A stretch of 64,000 bases of DNA, taken from the sequence record MK327933.1. One strand, given 5' to 3'. Position 1 is the first letter of the stretch. Each line of letters starts with the position of its first letter. The stretch is from Escherichia phage vB_EcoM_G2285. The translations under genes were made by a program, and so were the position numbers. Positions 184-46,437 of the stretch are shown here, piece after piece. The notes beneath the pieces are model-generated. The model did no database searches. It was not told the origin of the DNA and saw only the letters and a list, made by a program, of their open reading frames with translations.

Positions 184-1703
184 TATTTTGAAGCCAAAAT
201 CTCTTTAATTATTTCAGCATTTCGCTGTGCAGCCAACATGTAGCGCTTATGTTCTTTACGCTGCAAGAATACCTTAGTGATTTCTGTTGGAATCACACCA
301 TCACGGTCTTTATAATACATCATGCCGTTAGGAGAGCAACTGTACACATCTGAAGGACGTTCGGCGATTGCGTTAATATACTCATGCAGTGGAGCTACTT
401 TAAACGTTCCTGCTATTGTTTCCGGGCTAATATTCACTTGGCGAATAATACTTGGATACAGAGATGTAAGGTCGAAACTCATTACATATTTGTATCGATT
501 TGGAATAGGTTCCTTAACAAAAGCGCCAGGATAAGGTTGAACCGGGTGAGAACGACCTTGTGGAATCACCTTGTTCTGCTCTTTAAGGCTATTAAAAATA
601 ATAGCATCCCATGTTTTAATTGGGCTAAACACAGATTGAATCTGTATCTTAGCATAATAACCCATGTCCAAGCTCAAGTTGATGAACTGACGCTTAGCAT
701 CAATTTGCAATACACGATACACGTCGATAATGTTATAAGAAATATATCGTTGGTGATTGCTTTCACGAAGCTTAGAAATAGGGCCGTCATATTTCAGTTT
801 ACCAACGTTCAATTCAAATTCTGAAATGTAATCCAGAGAATATGACGGTTGATTGGTAAAAGAGAATTTTTTGTAAAGGTCAATGTAATCAAGAACAGAG
901 ATACCGAACAATGTAATGATTTCACGAGAACCATACATGTTTTCGATAACTTTAACACGAGTTTTACGATGTGGTGACAACCGTTTTGCTGTGGATTCGC
1001 CAAAAATATTCTTGATTCGGTTATACACATATGGAATATCAAATGACTCAACGTTCCATCCAGTCAAAATGACAGGAGTTTTCTGTTGCCAGAAGTTGAG
1101 ATATTCCATCAACAATTCTTTTTCGTTATCGAACGGCATATAAATGATTTTATCGATAATTTCAGATGGAACTTCATCACCGCCTTGTTCTTGAAGCTTA
1201 GCAGCGATTTCAATAGACCATTCTTCTACATTACCATACGGAGAATTCAATAGATCAAATACATAGAACCTGTCGTCAATTGAGTCATAATGGGTGATAG
1301 CATCAATCGGATGTTTTGCTTGTGACGGCTCAGGGAACCCATCCGGAGATGTTACTTCGATGTCGAAGTTAGCCACACGAATTTTTGTATGGTCGTATTT
1401 GATTTCATAGTTATAAGTGTCAGACAAATACGCCAATTTGAAATCGTCCATGCCAAGTGCTTCAAGTCCGATATCTTCCATGCGTTTAATCCATTGGGAG
1501 GCATCACGCATATTAGCGAACAGCTTACGAGTACACGGCTTACCGTAGATATCGAAATATTTCGTAGCCTGACTTTCTGGACAATGAGCAAACAGTGATG
1601 GTTTATATTCTACTTCACGAGTACGTTCACGGCCATTAGAATCGATGTAACGTTCAAAAATTGAATCACCAATCTGTTCAACCGTTAAGTAAAATTCTTT
1701 CAT
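183..1703 (-). CDS. 43: DNA polymerase gp43, N-terminal 506 aa fragment (exonuclease domain through motif A); terminates prematurely
   Basis: ORF begins MKEFYLTVEQIGDSIFERYIDSNGRERTREV, contains exo motifs (FDIEV, ESFDIPYVY, NIIDVYRV) and polymerase motif A (SFDLTSLYPSII); intact T4/RB69 gp43 is about 900 aa, here a stop follows ...AEIIKEILASK. Confidence 0.9.
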   Translation of the reverse strand: MKEFYLTVEQIGDSIFERYIDSNGRERTREVEYKPSLFAHCPESQATKYFDIYGKPCTRKLFANMRDASQWIKRMEDIGLEALGMDDFKLAYLSDTYNYEIKYDHTKIRVANFDIEVTSPDGFPEPSQAKHPIDAITHYDSIDDRFYVFDLLNSPYGNVEEWSIEIAAKLQEQGGDEVPSEIIDKIIYMPFDNEKELLMEYLNFWQQKTPVILTGWNVESFDIPYVYNRIKNIFGESTAKRLSPHRKTRVKVIENMYGSREIITLFGISVLDYIDLYKKFSFTNQPSYSLDYISEFELNVGKLKYDGPISKLRESNHQRYISYNIIDVYRVLQIDAKRQFINLSLDMGYYAKIQIQSVFSPIKTWDAIIFNSLKEQNKVIPQGRSHPVQPYPGAFVKEPIPNRYKYVMSFDLTSLYPSIIRQVNISPETIAGTFKVAPLHEYINAIAERPSDVYSCSPNGMMYYKDRDGVIPTEITKVFLQRKEHKRYMLAAQRNAEIIKEILASK

Positions 1704-12898: not shown

Positions 12899-13147
12899 TC
12901 AGAGGTTGATTGATACAACGCGTTTGATAAAATTCACTTCACTTACTGAAAGGTCTTTAAGACCGATTGATTCTAAACGCTGAATAAAAGTCAACATTGG
13001 GATATAGTCCCAATGTGTTTTAGACGTTTGATAAGTACGGACGCCATTAGCAATTTCAACGTTCAAATCGGAAATGGTAATGAATATCGGACGTTCGTTA
13101 TTTACATTAAGAGATAGAACAACTTTCTTCGAATTCAGACTAATCAT
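12899..13147 (-). CDS. Hypothetical protein
   Basis: ORF 12899-13309; start placed at internal Met (MISLNSKKVV...) at 13147 with SD GAGGA; upstream part overlaps promoter and hairpin. Confidence 0.4.
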   Translation of the reverse strand: MISLNSKKVVLSLNVNNERPIFITISDLNVEIANGVRTYQTSKTHWDYIPMLTFIQRLESIGLKDLSVSEVNFIKRVVSINL

Positions 13148-13279
13148 TTTGTTTTCCTCTGTAGTAGATGATGCTAATCTTAACATATCTATCGAGGATG
13201 TAAACTGTTTTATGAAAATATTTTTGATTTGAGAGGGGCACAAGGAGATAGTGAAGTGAAGATTCCAATGGATTATATT

Positions 13280-15746: not shown

Positions 15747-16491
15747 AATTTGGATAGTCCATAGATATGCAACGTTCTTTTATAGTGCTAGGATGAAAAT
15801 TTAGCGCTTTAGCTGCTTCTATATAAGACGTATACTTAATACCGTCAACAACCACATATTCAGGAACTTTATGAATAGTAGTCTTAATACTCAAAACAAG
15901 AGGATGAGTTTCGACTTCACTTTCAGTGCAATTTAAATATTCCGCTGCTTTTTTAAAACTTCTAAAAGTTTTATTTTTAAGCTTTATCGATACTTGTTTT
16001 TTACTTTTTCGACTATTGATATTATTTTGCACATGTTCCTTAGATCTTCCGTTTTTAGCATAATATTCAGCTACAGAAGATTTTATATTGTTTTTATGAG
16101 ATTCGGATAACACTTTACCCTTATGAGCATCTCTTAATTTTTGAATATGTTCTTCAGTATCCGGATGCTTATAAAACTTTTTACCGCCTATGGATTTATT
16201 TAAACATTTTTTGCTATAAAAATATTTACGTATGACCTCTTCTTCATGTTTTAATGCATCTTTATAACTATCAAATGTTTTTAAAATTATCCATTTAGTA
16301 GGTGTATCAGTTTTTAAGCGTTCATTTATATACTTAGATGACGTTGTGTAAGTTTTCCAGTTTGTGGGCTTGTTTTTAATTGTTCTAAATTTTTTATAAC
16401 CGATATAAATGTCGCCATTAGAAAACTTAACTAAGTATGTAAATGCGTCTTTATCTTTTATTTTAGTACAACGTCTTTTTATCCATTTCAT
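15721..16491 (-). CDS. Intron-encoded GIY-YIG homing endonuclease (I-TevII-like)
   Basis: 256 aa ORF inside the interruption of nrdD; N-terminal YLVKFSNGDIYIGYKK resembles the GIY-YIG motif; basic C-terminal region. Confidence 0.7.
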   Translation of the reverse strand: MKWIKRRCTKIKDKDAFTYLVKFSNGDIYIGYKKFRTIKNKPTNWKTYTTSSKYINERLKTDTPTKWIILKTFDSYKDALKHEEEVIRKYFYSKKCLNKSIGGKKFYKHPDTEEHIQKLRDAHKGKVLSESHKNNIKSSVAEYYAKNGRSKEHVQNNINSRKSKKQVSIKLKNKTFRSFKKAAEYLNCTESEVETHPLVLSIKTTIHKVPEYVVVDGIKYTSYIEAAKALNFHPSTIKERCISMDYPNFVVSYKRA

Positions 16492-16735
16492 TGTTTCACC
16501 TCGTATTCATAAGATAATCTTATTTATACAAGATGACTGCTGCATGTCGCCATGCAGATTAGACTATATCTTCATCTTTCGATGCCGGCCGTTTCGAATA
16601 GCATTAGCTTCTATTCTACACCGCTACATTCATCACGGTTAGTCGTTAGGCATTTAGTTCAAAAGAACATTTAGCACGGGATTGTCTACTAGAGAGGTTC
16701 CCCGTTTAGACCGGTTTTACATGAGCCTGAATTAA
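15740..16735 (-). mobile_element. Probable group I intron interrupting nrdD (boundaries approximate)
   Basis: About 1 kb separates the two nrdD reading-frame segments and contains the endonuclease ORF plus about 240 nt of structured non-coding sequence (16492-16731); arrangement as in the T4 nrdD intron. Confidence 0.55.
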
Positions 16736-22427: not shown

Positions 22428-22464
22428 ATAGGTCTATAATAACATAACCATAGACCTTGTAAAC
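22428..22464 (-). promoter_or_regulatory. Early-type promoter with inverted repeat
   Basis: Minus strand GTTTAC (plus 22459-22464) then ATAGGTCT...ATAGACCT palindrome around the -10. Confidence 0.4.
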
Positions 22465-26865: not shown

Positions 26866-27025
26866 ACATTTGCAATTCGGTGTGGGCTTCGGCCATCTTT
26901 TTCATAGCTCTGTTAATGTCGATGTCTCCATCTTCGCAACCATGAGCATTTTCCCAATCAGATACCGCATTAGCGTACTCTTCAATCAAAAACATCAACT
27001 TAGAAATTTTTTCTTTACGTGACAT
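26846..27025 (-). CDS. Hypothetical small protein
   Basis: ORF 26846-27064; start placed at internal Met (MSRKEKISKLMF...) at 27025 with SD GAGGAG, because the promoter -10 lies at 27053-27061. Confidence 0.4.
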   Translation of the reverse strand: MSRKEKISKLMFLIEEYANAVSDWENAHGCEDGDIDINRAMKKMAEAHTELQMYVNEIM

Positions 27026-27030
27026 AACGT

Positions 27031-27081
27031 TCTCCTCTAGTAAGTAAGGTTTACTATAACACAACCTGAGGAGAAGTAAAC
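27031..27081 (-). promoter_or_regulatory. Early-type promoter with inverted repeat that can sequester the downstream Shine-Dalgarno
   Basis: Minus strand GTTTAC (plus 27076-27081), -10 TGTTATAGT; arms TTCTCCTC (27031-27038) and GAGGAGAA (27068-27075). Confidence 0.45.
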
Positions 27082-27091
27082 TGCTAAATGC

Positions 27092-27119
27092 AAAAAAGCC
27101 CCAACCGTAAGGAAGGGGC
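27092..27119 (-). terminator. Rho-independent terminator after rI
   Basis: Hairpin GCCCCTTCCTTACGGTTGGGGC followed by TTTTTT on the minus strand. Confidence 0.55.
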
Positions 27120-27126
27120 TAGTAAA

Positions 27127-29803: not shown

Positions 29804-30262
29804 CTAGATTTTAATCACTGCTTTAGAAGCTTTTCCTGGTAGTCGTTTACTGTTAATAATAGCCATTCTACATTGAAGAGTCTTCATTTTGAATGCTGGA
29901 TTTTCGCGACAAACTGTAAGTCCTAACCAAAGATTTCCATCAGTTATTTCTAAACGGCCCGGGCGATATTCGACACCTTCGACAAAATCTTCATCAACAT
30001 CTGGACGTGCCGGCATTGATAAAAATTCTGCAACTTCTTTAACATGATTTTTTACTTTATGAAATAATTCAAAAACGTAATTCTCATCTATTTCTCTCTG
30101 GATGGCACGATCTAAGAGATGTTGAGAATACTTGATATGAAAGCCTGGTAGTCCAAGAGACTTTGCAGCATCTTTTATACCGGCATTTATTTTGCGGAAC
30201 TCCGTTTCAAAGATTCGACGGAGTTTATTACGGCGGATAAAAACGTCTGAATTGATAGTCAT
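29804..30262 (-). CDS. regB: Putative site-specific endoribonuclease RegB
   Basis: 152 aa ORF (RegB is about 153 aa) located between tk and denV; assigned by size and synteny, not by a motif. Confidence 0.45.
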   Translation of the reverse strand: MTINSDVFIRRNKLRRIFETEFRKINAGIKDAAKSLGLPGFHIKYSQHLLDRAIQREIDENYVFELFHKVKNHVKEVAEFLSMPARPDVDEDFVEGVEYRPGRLEITDGNLWLGLTVCRENPAFKMKTLQCRMAIINSKRLPGKASKAVIKI

Positions 30263-30270
30263 TTTGATTT

Positions 30271-30319
30271 CTCCTCTAGTTGACAGGTCTATAGTAACAC
30301 AACTAGAGGAGAAGTAAAC
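30271..30319 (-). promoter_or_regulatory. Early-type promoter with 11-bp inverted repeat able to sequester the regB Shine-Dalgarno
   Basis: Minus strand GTTTAC (plus 30314-30319); arms CTCCTCTAGTT (30271-30281) and AACTAGAGGAG (30301-30311); left arm contains the SD of the ATG at 30262. Confidence 0.5.
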
Positions 30320-33738: not shown

Positions 33739-33792
33739 TTCCTCCAAGTAGTTGATGAATGTATAGTATCAAAGTCCTTGGAGGAAGTAAAC
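33739..33792 (-). promoter_or_regulatory. Early-type promoter with 10-bp inverted repeat overlapping the denV Shine-Dalgarno
   Basis: Minus strand GTTTAC (plus 33787-33792); arms TTCCTCCAAG (33739-33748) and CTTGGAGGAA (33777-33786). Confidence 0.45.
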
Positions 33793-34075: not shown

Positions 34076-34560
34076 ATATACGCTTTCCAAGTTCCTGTTT
34101 TAAATGTTGAGATTACGCGTTTCGCGCGATTAGGTGTCTGACGATACCATTTAGATTGGGCTAGATTTACTGCCGCTTCATCCCAACGTTTCTGTTGAAG
34201 AATACGAAGAGAATTAGTAAAACCGGCGACGCCTGCTACACCCATTTGGAAGACCATATTGACCAATGCACATCGACGAACTGCATCTAAAGAATCGTAT
34301 ACCGGTTTAAGTTTAGCATTACCCAAGATTCCGCGAACGGCTTTATCAACGTCTTCATTAAATAGCTTTTCAGCCTCATCAAGGGTAATTGTACCGTTGC
34401 ATTTACGTCCGATCATTCTGTCAAGTTCAGCTTTAGCTACGGCTAAAGACGGGTTCTTTGTTACTAAATGGCCTATGCCAATCGTCCAAAAGCCTTCAGT
34501 GTCTTTGTATAAAGTCGGTCTAAGACCTTCGTCATTACGAAGCATTTCAAATATATTCAT
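34072..34560 (-). CDS. e: Lysozyme e (endolysin, T4 lysozyme family)
   Basis: ORF 34072-34572; from [32 protein letters not shown] with catalytic Glu/Asp/Thr context; C-terminus ...[15 protein letters not shown]. Confidence 0.9.
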
Positions 34561-34594
34561 AATACCTCCCACGTTTATAGGAGGTATTTATTAC

Positions 34595-35053
34595 TTATAG
34601 GAGGGTAGTGAGCACCTTATATAATGATTTGCCCATTACATATTCCCATTGAGAAGGTTTAATTAAAGCGAATGCATCAAATTCAGGAATCTGTCGTCCG
34701 TCTGGGAATGTATGATAGGAATTACAAACACTGTTTCTGAATTGCTCGTGCTCTACAGGGATGGTATATAAGAACAGATGAATATTCTTATTGTCTGAGT
34801 AATGATGTTCACCTAGGTCTTTCAGGAAGGCAGGGTCATACTGTGTAAACCCAGTTTCTTCTTCGCATTCACGAATAGCGGCTTCAATAGGAGATTCGCC
34901 AGGTTCGACACGGCCTTTAGGAATATCCCACCGATGAGCTAATGCACCTTTAGGACGAGAACCAGTTACACGGCCCATGAATAATTCTTTATCTTCGGTA
35001 AGGAAAATAATACCGGCTGATAGTTCTTTCACTTTATTTTTCTTACTCATCAT
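34595..35053 (-). CDS. nudE: Nudix hydrolase NudE
   Basis: 152 aa; Nudix box GRVEPGESPIEAAIRECEEETGF. Confidence 0.85.
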   Translation of the reverse strand: MMSKKNKVKELSAGIIFLTEDKELFMGRVTGSRPKGALAHRWDIPKGRVEPGESPIEAAIRECEEETGFTQYDPAFLKDLGEHHYSDNKNIHLFLYTIPVEHEQFRNSVCNSYHTFPDGRQIPEFDAFALIKPSQWEYVMGKSLYKVLTTLL

Positions 35054-41052: not shown

Positions 41053-41124
41053 CTGGCGCACTTGGACTCGAACCAAGATAAAGGAGTTAACAGCTCCCCG
41101 TAATAACCTTTATACGATGCACCA
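41053..41124 (-). tRNA. tRNA-Asn (anticodon GUU), CCA not encoded
   Basis: Hand-folded cloverleaf: acceptor TGGTGCA/TGCGCCA (one G-U), D-loop AAAGGTTA, anticodon stem GGGAG/CTCCT with loop CTGTTAA, T-arm CTTGG-TTCGAGT-CCAAG. Confidence 0.6.
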
Positions 41125-41130
41125 TTTGTT

Positions 41131-41205
41131 TGGTGACCCTGGCTGGTTTCGATCCAGCTACCTATCAGTTATGAGCTGACAGCTCTCCCATTGAGCTACA
41201 GGGCC
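41131..41205 (-). tRNA. tRNA with CAU anticodon (Met, or Ile if C34 is modified), CCA encoded
   Basis: Hand-folded cloverleaf: acceptor GGCCCTG/CAGGGTC, D-stem GCTC/GAGC, anticodon stem GTCAG/CTGAT with loop CTCATAA, T-arm GCTGG-ATCGAAA-CCAGC, 3' ACCA. Confidence 0.6.
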
Positions 41206-42886: not shown

Positions 42887-42924
42887 ATAGGACTACTATA
42901 ACATAGCCCTATAACATTGTAAAC
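42887..42924 (-). promoter_or_regulatory. Promoter/stem-loop cassette (PeSL-like)
   Basis: Palindrome ATAGGACTACTATAACATAGCCCTAT (42887-42912) plus minus-strand GTTTAC (42919-42924). Confidence 0.5.
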
Positions 42925-43627: not shown

Positions 43628-44362
43628 TTACCTTAAGATTGTTTCAATTTTAGAATAAAGCTCTTCTAAAGAGCCGTCGTTTGTAATAACTAAATCGCCT
43701 TCTTCAATAGGCAACCCAGCTTCTGTAATATGTTTATCAGTGGATTCCGTACCAGAGCGAACCACATGAATAACTGTAGCACCCATCGCTCTAGCGGTTT
43801 CCATTTCATGGACTTGGCGTGTATCTGTTACAACATAGTAATCGAAATCACTTCCAATATAATCCATATAGTTTAATGCAAAAAGCTTAACCCAATACAT
43901 ACGGTCAAATAAATTAACGACAACATCCGTACCGAGGGCTTGCATAAGACGGCGGATTGACCATGTGTCGTTGATATTATTTATAACTTCACGCAGGGCT
44001 TCATATGGTTTAATATCTAGATACGAATATCCACCTTCTAACGATGATAATACTTTAACATTATTAATCGGTAAATATTGACTTTGCAAATAAATTAGCG
44101 CTTCTTCCAATAATTCAATAACATCCAACTTATTGAGATTTAATGGTGTTTCACGGTCGTATCCAATGCCTTCAAAGTATTCGTATTTCAACTCTGTGAA
44201 TACATCAGGATTTTCAGCATGCCTACGTCCCCAGGCTATTGCTAGAGCGTCTTTAATTGGATATGCTAATTGGTATTTTACGGATTTAAAGTTTGAATTG
44301 ATGTAATCAGCAGTAGTGTCTTTACCACTACGTTTGATGCCACTTAAAAAGATTAGCTCCAT
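43628..44362 (-). CDS. 1: Deoxynucleoside monophosphate kinase gp1
   Basis: 244 aa; P-loop FLSGIKRSGKDTTAD; ...VRRLMQALGTD...DRMYWVKLFA... Confidence 0.9.
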   Translation of the reverse strand: MELIFLSGIKRSGKDTTADYINSNFKSVKYQLAYPIKDALAIAWGRRHAENPDVFTELKYEYFEGIGYDRETPLNLNKLDVIELLEEALIYLQSQYLPINNVKVLSSLEGGYSYLDIKPYEALREVINNINDTWSIRRLMQALGTDVVVNLFDRMYWVKLFALNYMDYIGSDFDYYVVTDTRQVHEMETARAMGATVIHVVRSGTESTDKHITEAGLPIEEGDLVITNDGSLEELYSKIETILR

Positions 44363-44415
44363 AGGTTTTCCTCGTATAATTTATGAGTGATTATAACATA
44401 CGGAGCTAGAAGCGA

Positions 44416-45006
44416 TTAACGCAAGGAAGGGTGTCTAGAAATGGATTTAGATTCGACCGCTTGACGTGGTTGTTGAGATACAATGACTTCACCATCCTTT
44501 TCTATCGTCATGTACGCATAGTGAATAGTTGCTACGCACGTAACGGCAGGGTCAGAATCTTCAGTGTAACTAAATTCAATTTCACTCAAATCAGAAATCC
44601 ATGGTTTATAGAAATTCGCCGTCAAAACTACTTCAGTCTTATTGTTGTTTAAAATGTGCAAAGTAACAAACTCAGGACCATCGGAGTGGGCCGTATTATG
44701 TCCGGTTATATAGTTATTAGTGCTGAGCATCCATTTATACATGTTCATCCAGGACGTCATGTCTTCATCAACTATAAATCGTACAACAAAAGGGTCATAT
44801 TCAAATGTGGTGCCTGCACGCATTGCACGTCCTAACCCCATTGTGCCTGTCACAGTTTCAACAACAGGAATTCTCACACCTGGCAATGGAGCCGTTTGGG
44901 CATTGAGCACAAAACCTGAAGTTCGTGTACTATCCGGGATATCCACAACAAAGTTTGTTATATTTGTTTGGTTAAAAATCTGTCTCGCTGGACGAGTCAT
45001 AAGCAC
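44416..45006 (-). CDS. 3: Tail completion / sheath stabilizer gp3
   Basis: 196 aa ORF (true start may be an internal Met); position between genes 1 and 2. Confidence 0.7.
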   Translation of the reverse strand: MLMTRPARQIFNQTNITNFVVDIPDSTRTSGFVLNAQTAPLPGVRIPVVETVTGTMGLGRAMRAGTTFEYDPFVVRFIVDEDMTSWMNMYKWMLSTNNYITGHNTAHSDGPEFVTLHILNNNKTEVVLTANFYKPWISDLSEIEFSYTEDSDPAVTCVATIHYAYMTIEKDGEVIVSQQPRQAVESKSISRHPSLR

Positions 45007-45926: not shown

Positions 45927-46376
45927 TTACCCCTTGTATCCGAGTTTCCTAAGTCCATCTTCGGTTAGAACTCGAAATTTTATATTTCTCTTTTCAGCAA
46001 CAGCTGAGGCAGCTTTCCATTTGTCACAGTTCACAGACCACGTGTAGATTTCATTCATATAACGTTTCTTAGCCGCAGTTGTAAGATTCACCGGTTTAAT
46101 AGGTGGCTGAGTTTCTTTCTTTGGTTTTATTTCTACAAAGAACTCTTGACCTGATGCATCTTTCATCCATATGTCCATATAGTATCGACGTTTCTTACCT
46201 TCAGCATTACAAAAATATGGAATTACTGCTGTTTCACTACCCCATGCAATAATTTCTGGATTTTTATCCAACCATTCGAAAAAGAATTTTTCCCAGTTTG
46301 AACGATACGTTATTTTGGTATGGTCTCCACGGTATTTTTTTAAATTTTTTGGGACCCATTTACCAGAGTAGGCCAT
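45927..46376 (-). CDS. 4: Head completion protein gp4
   Basis: ORF 45927-46520; from [19 protein letters not shown] it is 150 aa; GGAG upstream and a minus-strand TATAAATA at 46403-46410. Confidence 0.8.
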
Positions 46377-46387
46377 GTTGTCCTCCT

Positions 46388-46395
46388 TATAAATA
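46388..46395 (+). promoter_or_regulatory. Late promoter TATAAATA for gene 53 and downstream baseplate genes
   Basis: Exact TATAAATA on plus strand 43 nt upstream of the gene 53 ATG. Confidence 0.55.
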
Positions 46396-46402
46396 GTATT
46401 AT

Positions 46403-46410
46403 TATTTATA
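46403..46410 (-). promoter_or_regulatory. Late promoter TATAAATA for gene 4 (divergent from the gene 53 promoter)
   Basis: Plus-strand TATTTATA about 27 nt upstream of the gene 4 ATG at 46376. Confidence 0.5.
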
Positions 46411-46437
46411 CCAATTTCATATTGGAAGGAGACTATC

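Follow-up and report, generated by a model that had tools for sequence, protein, structure and literature searches.

In bacteriophage T4 the genes e, soc, 49, I-TevI, I-TevII, I-TevIII and segB, like mobE of Aeh1, carry a hairpin that sequesters the Shine-Dalgarno (SD) sequence and is bypassed by an internal late promoter (PMC3014915, PMC2988022). For T4 gene e, this hairpin lowers lysozyme synthesis 100-fold (PMC3014915). Also related are the early-promoter/stem-loop (PeSL) cassettes of RB49, phi1, PST and nt-1, the stems of which have been treated as terminators or attenuators (PMC2839356, PMC4122927). Here we describe hairpins upstream of regB, denV and a small gene starting at 27025 (orf27025) in a 64,000-nucleotide stretch of Escherichia phage vB_EcoM_G2285 (sequence record MK327933.1; the whole stretch is hereafter the window), which is RB69-like Mosigvirus DNA with 98.5% identity to phage RB69 and, despite the gene names, not T4 itself. 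In each case the spacer of an early promoter contains an arm complementary to the gene's own SD region (the anti-SD arm). We consider it likely that the regB and denV cassettes, and that of orf27025 too, act as promoter-coupled translational insulators; orf27025, a homologue of RB69 mobD.2a, is probably the third member of the set.

A likeness to T4 lysozyme and I-TevI was pointed out in a preliminary description of this DNA, and as regards the logic it stands: the SD and/or AUG lies in a helix of long transcripts, an internal promoter yields RNA without the 5' arm, and the predicted energetics are comparable. It does not extend to the promoters, which are early rather than late. The e and I-TevI cases use gp55 late promoters (TATAAATA), delaying translation until late, whereas regB, denV and orf27025 use sigma-70 early promoters with the 5' arm in the -35/-10 spacer. 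Since the internal promoters are early, the temporal outcome would be reversed, with translation confined to the earliest minutes, the period of early-promoter firing. The motif TATAAATA does not occur between the arms at regB, denV or orf27025 and is present between them at e, gene 4 and an I-TevII-like gene. The early-promoter form appears to be undescribed, since the known examples of the logic all involve late promoters: full-text literature searches and the relevant reviews yielded no account of an early-promoter spacer containing an anti-SD arm, although the older T4 literature may mention one.

The cassettes share the PeSL layout: upstream AT-rich DNA is followed by an early promoter of the sigma-70-like kind, whose -35 and -10 elements flank or are overlapped by a stem-loop, and then by the SD and ATG. 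As with PeSLs, they occupy intergenic gaps of plastic early regions, and near-identical cassettes are found at different genes. They differ in that PeSL stems are often poly-G/poly-C, with the SD drawn as a separate downstream element, whereas at regB, denV and orf27025 the 3' arm is the SD itself, lacks a U-tract and pairs in a manner that co-varies with the SD region. Judged by structure the three cassettes would be classed as PeSLs, and their sequence gives no sign of a terminator function.

The minus-strand gene order is e, an internal-head-protein gene, denV ... vs genes, ORF117c, regB, vs.1 ... mobD.2a. On the mRNA strand the three leaders share one layout, namely GTTTAC (-35), anti-SD arm, TG-extended -10, +1, SD arm and ATG (Table 1). 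The promoters are all of the T4 early type (GTTTAC, a spacer of 16-17 nucleotides (nt), and TG-n-TACTAT or TATAGT). In each cassette the final base of the -35 hexamer TTTACT is also the first of the 5' arm, a register tied to the promoter at 0 +/- 1 nt after the hexamer, and the -10 element (TACTAT or TATAGT) falls inside a hairpin loop of 17-30 nt. The predicted +1, set at the seventh base past the -10, is downstream of the 5' arm and 2-8 nt ahead of the SD-containing 3' arm. Early promoters had been predicted independently in RB69 by the hidden Markov model scan of Nolan et al. 2006 (Pe:61376 for regB, Pe:64934 for denV, Pe:58138 for orf27025), and their 3' ends (position 0) map exactly onto the three predicted starts. 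All strings and coordinates quoted in the preliminary description were recovered. It had set the regB upstream arm ahead of the local -10, and the arm indeed occupies the -35/-10 spacer of an early promoter of T4 type. Its repeated geometry is borne out by the order of elements at all three genes, with orf27025 a weak example.

The regB leader reads GTTTAC TTCTCCTCTAGTTG tgttactatagacctgt CAACTAGAGGAGAA atcaaaATG. The pairing originally proposed here, CTCCTCTAGTT (30271-30281) with AACTAGAGGAG (30301-30311), is complementary but understates the stem, which has 14 perfect base pairs (bp) rather than 11 and a loop of 17 nt. The -35 element matches the T4 regB early promoter in position, and among T4 early cassettes a -10 of TACTAT preceded by TG is common. 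The early promoter of T4 regB is described as typical and as shutting off at 2-3 min (PMC3014915). The denV leader, GTTTAC TTCCTCCAAG ... CTTGGAGGAA attATG, forms a stem of 10 bp from arms present as first quoted (TTCCTCCAAG 33739-33748, CTTGGAGGAA 33777-33786). That of orf27025, GTTTAC TTCTCCTC ... GAGGAGAA cgttATG, likewise contains the quoted arms (TTCTCCTC 27030-27037, GAGGAGAA 27068-27075), but they amount to only 8 bp and the minimum free energy (MFE) of the fold is not significant.

Table 1. Elements of the regB, denV and orf27025 cassettes in the window, with corresponding arms and cassettes in relatives
Feature	Position	Strand	Remark
regB -35 GTTTACT	30313..30319 (hexamer TTTACT 30313-30318)	minus	sequence; RB69 Pe:61376 (Nolan et al. 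2006)
regB 5' arm (anti-SD) TTCTCCTCTAGTTG	30300..30313	minus	in promoter spacer; only in read-through RNA
regB extended -10 TGT-TACTAT	30291..30299	minus	in hairpin loop
regB predicted +1 (G)	30284	minus	seven nt after -10; = 3' end of Pe:61376, i.e. 61327
regB 3' arm CAACTAGAGGAGAA	30269..30282	minus	contains SD, GGAG 30271-30274
regB coding sequence, 152 aa	29804..30262 (ATG 30260-30262)	minus	98.5% DNA identity to RB69 regB; tblastn matches to RegB
denV -35 GTTTACT	33786..33792	minus	sequence; RB69 Pe:64934
denV 5' arm (anti-SD) TTCCTCCAAG	33777..33786	minus	in promoter spacer
denV extended -10 TGA-TACTAT	33763..33771	minus	in loop
denV predicted +1 (A)	33756	minus	= 3' end of RB69 Pe:64934, i.e. 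64884
denV 3' arm CTTGGAGGAA	33739..33748	minus	contains SD, GGAGG 33741-33745
denV coding sequence, 137 aa	33322..33735	minus	
orf27025 -35 GTTTACT	27075..27081	minus	TTTACT, 16-nt spacer, TATAGT with TG; RB69 Pe:58138
orf27025 5' arm (anti-SD) TTCTCCTC	27068..27075	minus	weak in positional test and MFE
orf27025 -10 TATAGT	27053..27058	minus	
orf27025 3' arm GAGGAGAA (SD)	27030..27037	minus	predicted +1 at 27046
orf27025 coding sequence, 59 aa	26846..27025	minus	MobD.2a-like (RB69 mobD.2a homologue)
Intrinsic terminator AGCCCC...GGGGCT + T6	27092..27120	minus	immediately upstream of orf27025 cassette
regB arms, T4			5' TTTTCCTCTTGACTG, 3' CAGTTAAGAGGAGAA; two G.U pairs
regB arms, Serratia X20			5' ATCCTCATTTG, 3' CAAATGAGGAT
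regB arms, IME523 and PEi26			5' ATCTCCTTTTAGT, 3' ACTAAAAGGAGAT
regB arms, C6			5' ATCTCCTGTAG, 3' CTACAGGAGAT
regB arms, IMG/VR L023			5' TTTCTCCTCTTTATG, 3' CATAAAGAGGAGAAA
regB arms, IMG/VR L026			5' TCTCCTGTAAGT, 3' ACTTACAGGAGA
denV stem, T4			TCTCCTGTAG/CTACAGGAGA
denV stems, others			ATCTCCGTTTG/CAAACGGAGAT and TCTCCTGTG/CACAGGAGA; pairing kept
Near-identical cassettes, T4 denV and C6 regB	T4 L014 8357-8420; C6 L005 310-394	minus (T4 L014)	
Near-identical cassettes, T4 alc and alt.-3	ATG 136278 (alc); 123032 (alt.-3)		
Second-geometry denV loci	about 340-403		L035, L041, L042, L052, L054, L062, L063

Inverted repeats as such are not enriched: perfect arms of at least 10 bp with loops of 3-45 nt occur six times in the window, where dinucleotide shuffles give 3.7 +/- 1.8. 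Shuffled arms reached at most 13 bp, shorter than the 14 bp of regB, where a chance palindrome was rejected on that ground; as a bare repeat, only the regB stem is significant. The signal above chance lies instead in the position of the repeats. This was assessed by testing, for each of 17 early-promoter cassettes in the window, the region preceding +1 against the leader of its own gene. The resulting z-scores for complementarity were -6.0 for denV, -5.3 for regB, -2.6 for orf27025 (p ~0.015) and -2.5 for orf13147, those of the remaining 13 cassettes being near 0.

The regB cassette is predicted to fold at -21.6 kcal/mol (z = -4.9) and that of denV at -17.8 kcal/mol (z = -5.2), in neither case equalled by any of 200 shuffles per cassette. 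The fold of orf27025, at -14.2 kcal/mol (z = -1.5), was matched by 16 of 200 shuffles and is not significant by itself. Masking was measured as the cost of opening the stretch from SD to AUG, in read-through RNA modelled from -120 to +40 and in promoter-initiated RNA modelled from the predicted +1 with 40 nt of coding sequence. In kcal/mol, the cost falls from 17.8 to 4.6 for regB, from 12.0 to 2.3 for denV and from 11.2 to 4.4 for orf27025 on going from the long to the short RNA, and the bare promoter-initiated leaders of all three genes fold at 0 kcal/mol. Among the 102 SD-bearing starts of the window (median 5.4, 95th percentile 12.0), regB ranks 1st, the lysozyme gene e, employed as a positive control, 2nd, denV 6th and orf27025 8th. 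For comparison, the gene e leader hairpin in the window has -19.1 kcal/mol and is no stronger than those of regB and denV. The expectation that transcripts from the local promoter lack the upstream arm and leave the SD free, while longer ones mask it, is thus what the folding predicts.

The pairing has been kept in evolution. About 28 different stems retain it across T-even relatives, and regB leaders in other genera keep the spacer-SD stem in differing sequences, as do those of denV (Table 1). Over 49 unique cassettes, the duplex between an arm and its own leader has a mean of -15.6 kcal/mol, compared with -9.65 with the leaders of others (permutation p ~2e-4). Covariation was scored in a register-anchored alignment of 23 cassettes, the register being chosen per sequence; the sequences are related and the shuffles carry no correction for phylogeny. 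In this alignment 78% of cells are paired, against 65% in shuffles, and the covariation score is 0.392 against 0.149 +/- 0.020 (reached by 0 of 500 shuffles), with slid registers giving at most 0.098. Changes on both sides are seen for 11 of 15 pairs, one column pair comprising GC nine times, CG seven times and UA six times with none unpaired. These comparisons support the maintenance of pairing by compensatory changes in the relatives. Folding of the sense strand is slightly more stable than that of the antisense strand (Wilcoxon p = 0.025); the strand tests point to the sense RNA but are not decisive.

Several denV lineages have a second geometry. Here the spacer holds no anti-SD, and the 5' arm spans the end of the -10 to approximately +1, pairing with the SD and the SD-AUG spacer and sometimes including the AUG itself. 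Examples are TAAG[ATGTCCTCCTA]catgat[TAGGAGGACAT]ATG, GATGTCTTCC/GGAGGACATC and TAGTGTTCTC/GAGAACACTA. Both geometries place the 5' arm ahead of +1. Two structures that have only this in common are to be expected if the selected function is to be masked in read-through RNA and open in promoter-initiated RNA.

The following mechanism is envisaged. The non-critical spacer of the sigma-70 early promoter, from the last base of the -35 onwards, encodes the complement of the gene's own SD region, so that a polymerase coming from upstream early, middle or late promoters on the same strand would transcribe both arms. Once the SD emerges, the hairpin (-14 to -22 kcal/mol) should close and exclude 30S subunits. 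RNA from the local promoter, predicted to start 2-8 nt before the 3' arm, would have no partner arm and would be unstructured and translated. We infer that in vivo the hairpin blocks initiation in this way, and RegB and DenV (probably MobD.2a also) would then be made only while their own early promoters fire, in the first minutes of infection, despite later read-through. In regB there may be a further consequence. The GGAG of its SD is conserved and is a RegB cleavage site in T4, RB69 and others (PMC3014915). RegB autoregulation acts on single-stranded GGAG; in read-through regB RNA this motif would be hidden from RegB too, exempting such RNA, and promoter-initiated RNA would stay open to autoregulation.

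If the stems were instead attenuators, terminators or RNA-end stabilisers of the PeSL type, stopping or trimming upstream transcription or protecting the 3' end of the upstream message, their overlap with the SD would be incidental. The RB49/phi1 cassettes, whose stems overlap the -35 and -10 or lie between them, lend this some weight, one PeSL stem having lowered downstream lacZ like a strong terminator (Arbiol et al. 2010, PMC2839356), as do the many SD-free promoter hairpins of the window (ATAGGACTA..TAGTCCTAT at 42924, 42549, 37404, 36109 and 26632). However, the covariation follows the SD region of the gene concerned, and in the second geometry the SD-AUG spacer as well, a match for which a terminator has no need, and orf27025 has a separate canonical terminator just upstream. 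No U-run follows the 3' arms (AUCAAAAUG at regB, AUUAUG at denV, CGUUAUG at orf27025), and a terminator scan, admitting loops of 3-8 nt only, flagged none of the three stems; given their loops of 17-30 nt and the missing U-run, identity as intrinsic terminators was rejected. The stems may have a pausing or RNA-end role, but we think it unlikely that such a role explains them. Translational coupling, in which regB and denV would be silent unless ribosomes ending the upstream open reading frame (ORF) melted the 5' arm, would fit the nearby upstream stops at regB (where the TAG overlaps the G of GTTTAC) and denV. It is nevertheless highly improbable, because at all three genes the whole 5' arm is outside the upstream ORF and is placed relative to the promoter and not to the stop codon. 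A terminating ribosome, given the footprint known for ribosomes, would cover no more than the first few of the 10-14 bp, and at orf27025 the upstream stop is some 50 nt from the arm, beyond a terminator.

RegB cuts GGAG in single-stranded SDs, its own included, and is inhibited by secondary structure (PMC3014915, PMC1702504); sixteen RegB-resistant T4 GGAG sites lie in stable structures (PMC1702504). The hairpins might therefore serve mainly to shield the GGAG of read-through RNA and keep long polycistronic messages intact, with the block to translation a side effect. Since structure that hides GGAG from RegB also hides it from ribosomes, the two effects are inseparable by sequence, and since structure inhibits RegB, protection is a likely real consequence at regB. 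As a general purpose it is excluded by T4 denV, whose RNA is a RegB-resistant, unstructured substrate without the A-rich 3' context (PMC1702504) and yet has the hairpin. Masks are also found on SDs lacking GGAG, such as the GAGGAU of X20 regB and of T4 motB.2, and we hold shielding as the main role to be distinctly unlikely. There is, finally, very little likelihood that the repeats are a feature or by-product at the DNA level, whether as a substrate on which mobile cassettes recombine or as a palindrome arisen by chance, and lack any role in RNA. It is true that cassettes are common to unrelated genes (T4 denV and C6 regB, T4 alc and alt.-3), that PeSLs have been proposed as mediators of modular shuffling (PMC2839356, PMC4122927) and that 10-bp inverted repeats arise by chance. 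Homologous recombination, however, requires repeats between cassettes and not complementarity inside one; pairing is kept across many sequences and two geometries, with only the SD partner co-varying; and both the G.U pairs on the sense strand and the more stable sense folds speak for RNA.

Several observations nonetheless tell against promoter-coupled masking, or narrow its reach. At regB the upstream ORF stops 5 nt before the 5' arm and at denV 7 nt before it, close enough that ribosomes terminating there might melt part of the stem. Since chance alone would yield about 3.7 repeats of 10 bp per window, the denV case is carried by position and conservation, the sole grounds on which a chance palindrome was rejected there. 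Unrelated genes can have almost the same complete promoter/hairpin/SD cassette, as do T4 denV and C6 regB and likewise T4 alc and alt.-3, which suggests exchange or conversion of cassettes between loci; with cassettes seemingly mobile between genes, the covariation counts are not independent events. G.U pairs outnumber A.C mismatches in SD-overlapping stems by 9 to 3, which is not significant (p = 0.15). The regB mask is absent in CJ20, Aeromonas phage 31, PspYZU05 and an RB49-like phage, the last having no promoter of its own at regB, so that the mask must be dispensable and optional. The orf27025 example is weak, with its 8-bp stem, its MFE z of -1.5 and its separate upstream terminator. Its arms are invariant in its few close relatives, only near-identical cassettes having been found, and the T4 homologue has no cassette at that gene.

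Masking is a property of a minority of early cassettes, 3-4 of the 17 in the window. When 34 cassettes of T4 were scanned, regB, denV, alc, alt.-3, nrdC.8, motB.2 and one in the ndd.4 region scored z <= -4; with modB (second geometry) and 30.8, both of weaker own-leader complementarity, the T4 total is about 7-10 of 34, and T4 early cassettes outside the masked set show complementarity at the null level. In the T4 RefSeq record neither promoters nor structures are annotated. More tentatively, the cassettes with an anti-SD spacer could be self-insulating, portable modules that give the carried gene a short immediate-early pulse wherever it lands, whatever the upstream transcription. This possibility, if true, would tie the movement of PeSL-type cassettes to a function in translation, and would explain both the recurrence of the design at a fifth to a quarter of early promoters, in two convergent geometries, and its presence at the potentially harmful enzymes RegB, DenV, Alc and ModB.

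Confirmation of promoter-coupled masking would extend a classic T4 control (1986, lysozyme) from a few late genes to a sizeable early class, in the opposite temporal sense. It would also reveal how, in a phage whose long transcription units overlap, the RegB nuclease and the DenV repair endonuclease are limited to an early pulse, with T4 Alc and ModB likewise confined to a brief one. In T4 omics data the timing of RNA and protein often disagrees (PMC9697503), and masking of this kind could account for part of the mismatch. Stems interpreted as PeSL terminators may sometimes be translational masks. For annotation, the promoter spacers of such phages would prove able to hold regulatory information, and for synthetic biology the cassette offers a compact design, of about 60 nt, for promoter-specific translation.

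The terminator upstream of orf27025 (Table 1) keeps its stem among relatives while the loop varies, and it would already limit read-through into the gene. At orf13147 (window 13147-13205, minus strand; 82 aa, adjoining a 55.6 homologue) an outer TCCTC/GAGGA spacer-SD pairing surrounds an inner hairpin, and with its positional z of -2.5 this gene is a marginal candidate for a fourth member of the masked set. A further site, orf40592 (ATG 40535), resembles a mask in pairing TTCTTCC with GAGGAGAA but was rejected, its opening costs being 4.5 versus 3.2 kcal/mol and its z about 0. In gene 1 (dNMP kinase; 44362-44425, minus strand), the SD region ATACGAGG can pair with CTCCGTAT, situated just upstream of a TGTTATAAT -10 that is itself preceded by a MotA-box-like ATCGCTTCT. 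The long RNA has an opening cost of 11.3 kcal/mol, and the same masking logic may operate here at a middle promoter.

The classical late-promoter form is represented in the window by e (ATG 34560), the I-TevII-like gene (16491) and gene 4 (46376). The motif TATAAATA lies between arms GTCTCCTT and AAGGAGGAC in gene 4 (head closure; 46376-46425, minus strand) and between CATCTTGTAT and ATACGAGGTG in the I-TevII-like homing endonuclease gene (16491-16545, minus strand). In the gene e leader (34560-34600, minus strand) the late-promoter-like motifs AATAAATA and TATAAACG occur in and around the 5' arm.

The SD-free promoter hairpin mentioned above is near-identical at its five GTTTAC sites, and recurs at 22464, 183 and in the 11477 region, on the minus strand. 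It consists of ATAGG(G/A)CTA TGTTATAG TAGTCCTAT; its loop contains the -10 TATAGT, and its 3' arm runs up to +1. The SD is left free in long and short RNA alike (opening cost 1.5-5 kcal/mol), and the hairpin looks like an RB69 version of the PeSL cassettes. At the denV loci of jumbo phages (L058-L061, ~350-kb phages; ~330-400), the -35 TTGAC lies inside a terminator-like hairpin, GGGTTGACTTCGGTCAGCCC followed by a T-run, a promoter-terminator overlap of the PeSL kind in which the SD is free. Rfam 15, at the gathering threshold, gave no match at the masked cassettes, its sole matches in the window being two adjacent tRNA genes at 41053-41205 on the minus strand (Rfam tRNA, 53.6 and 59.4 bits).

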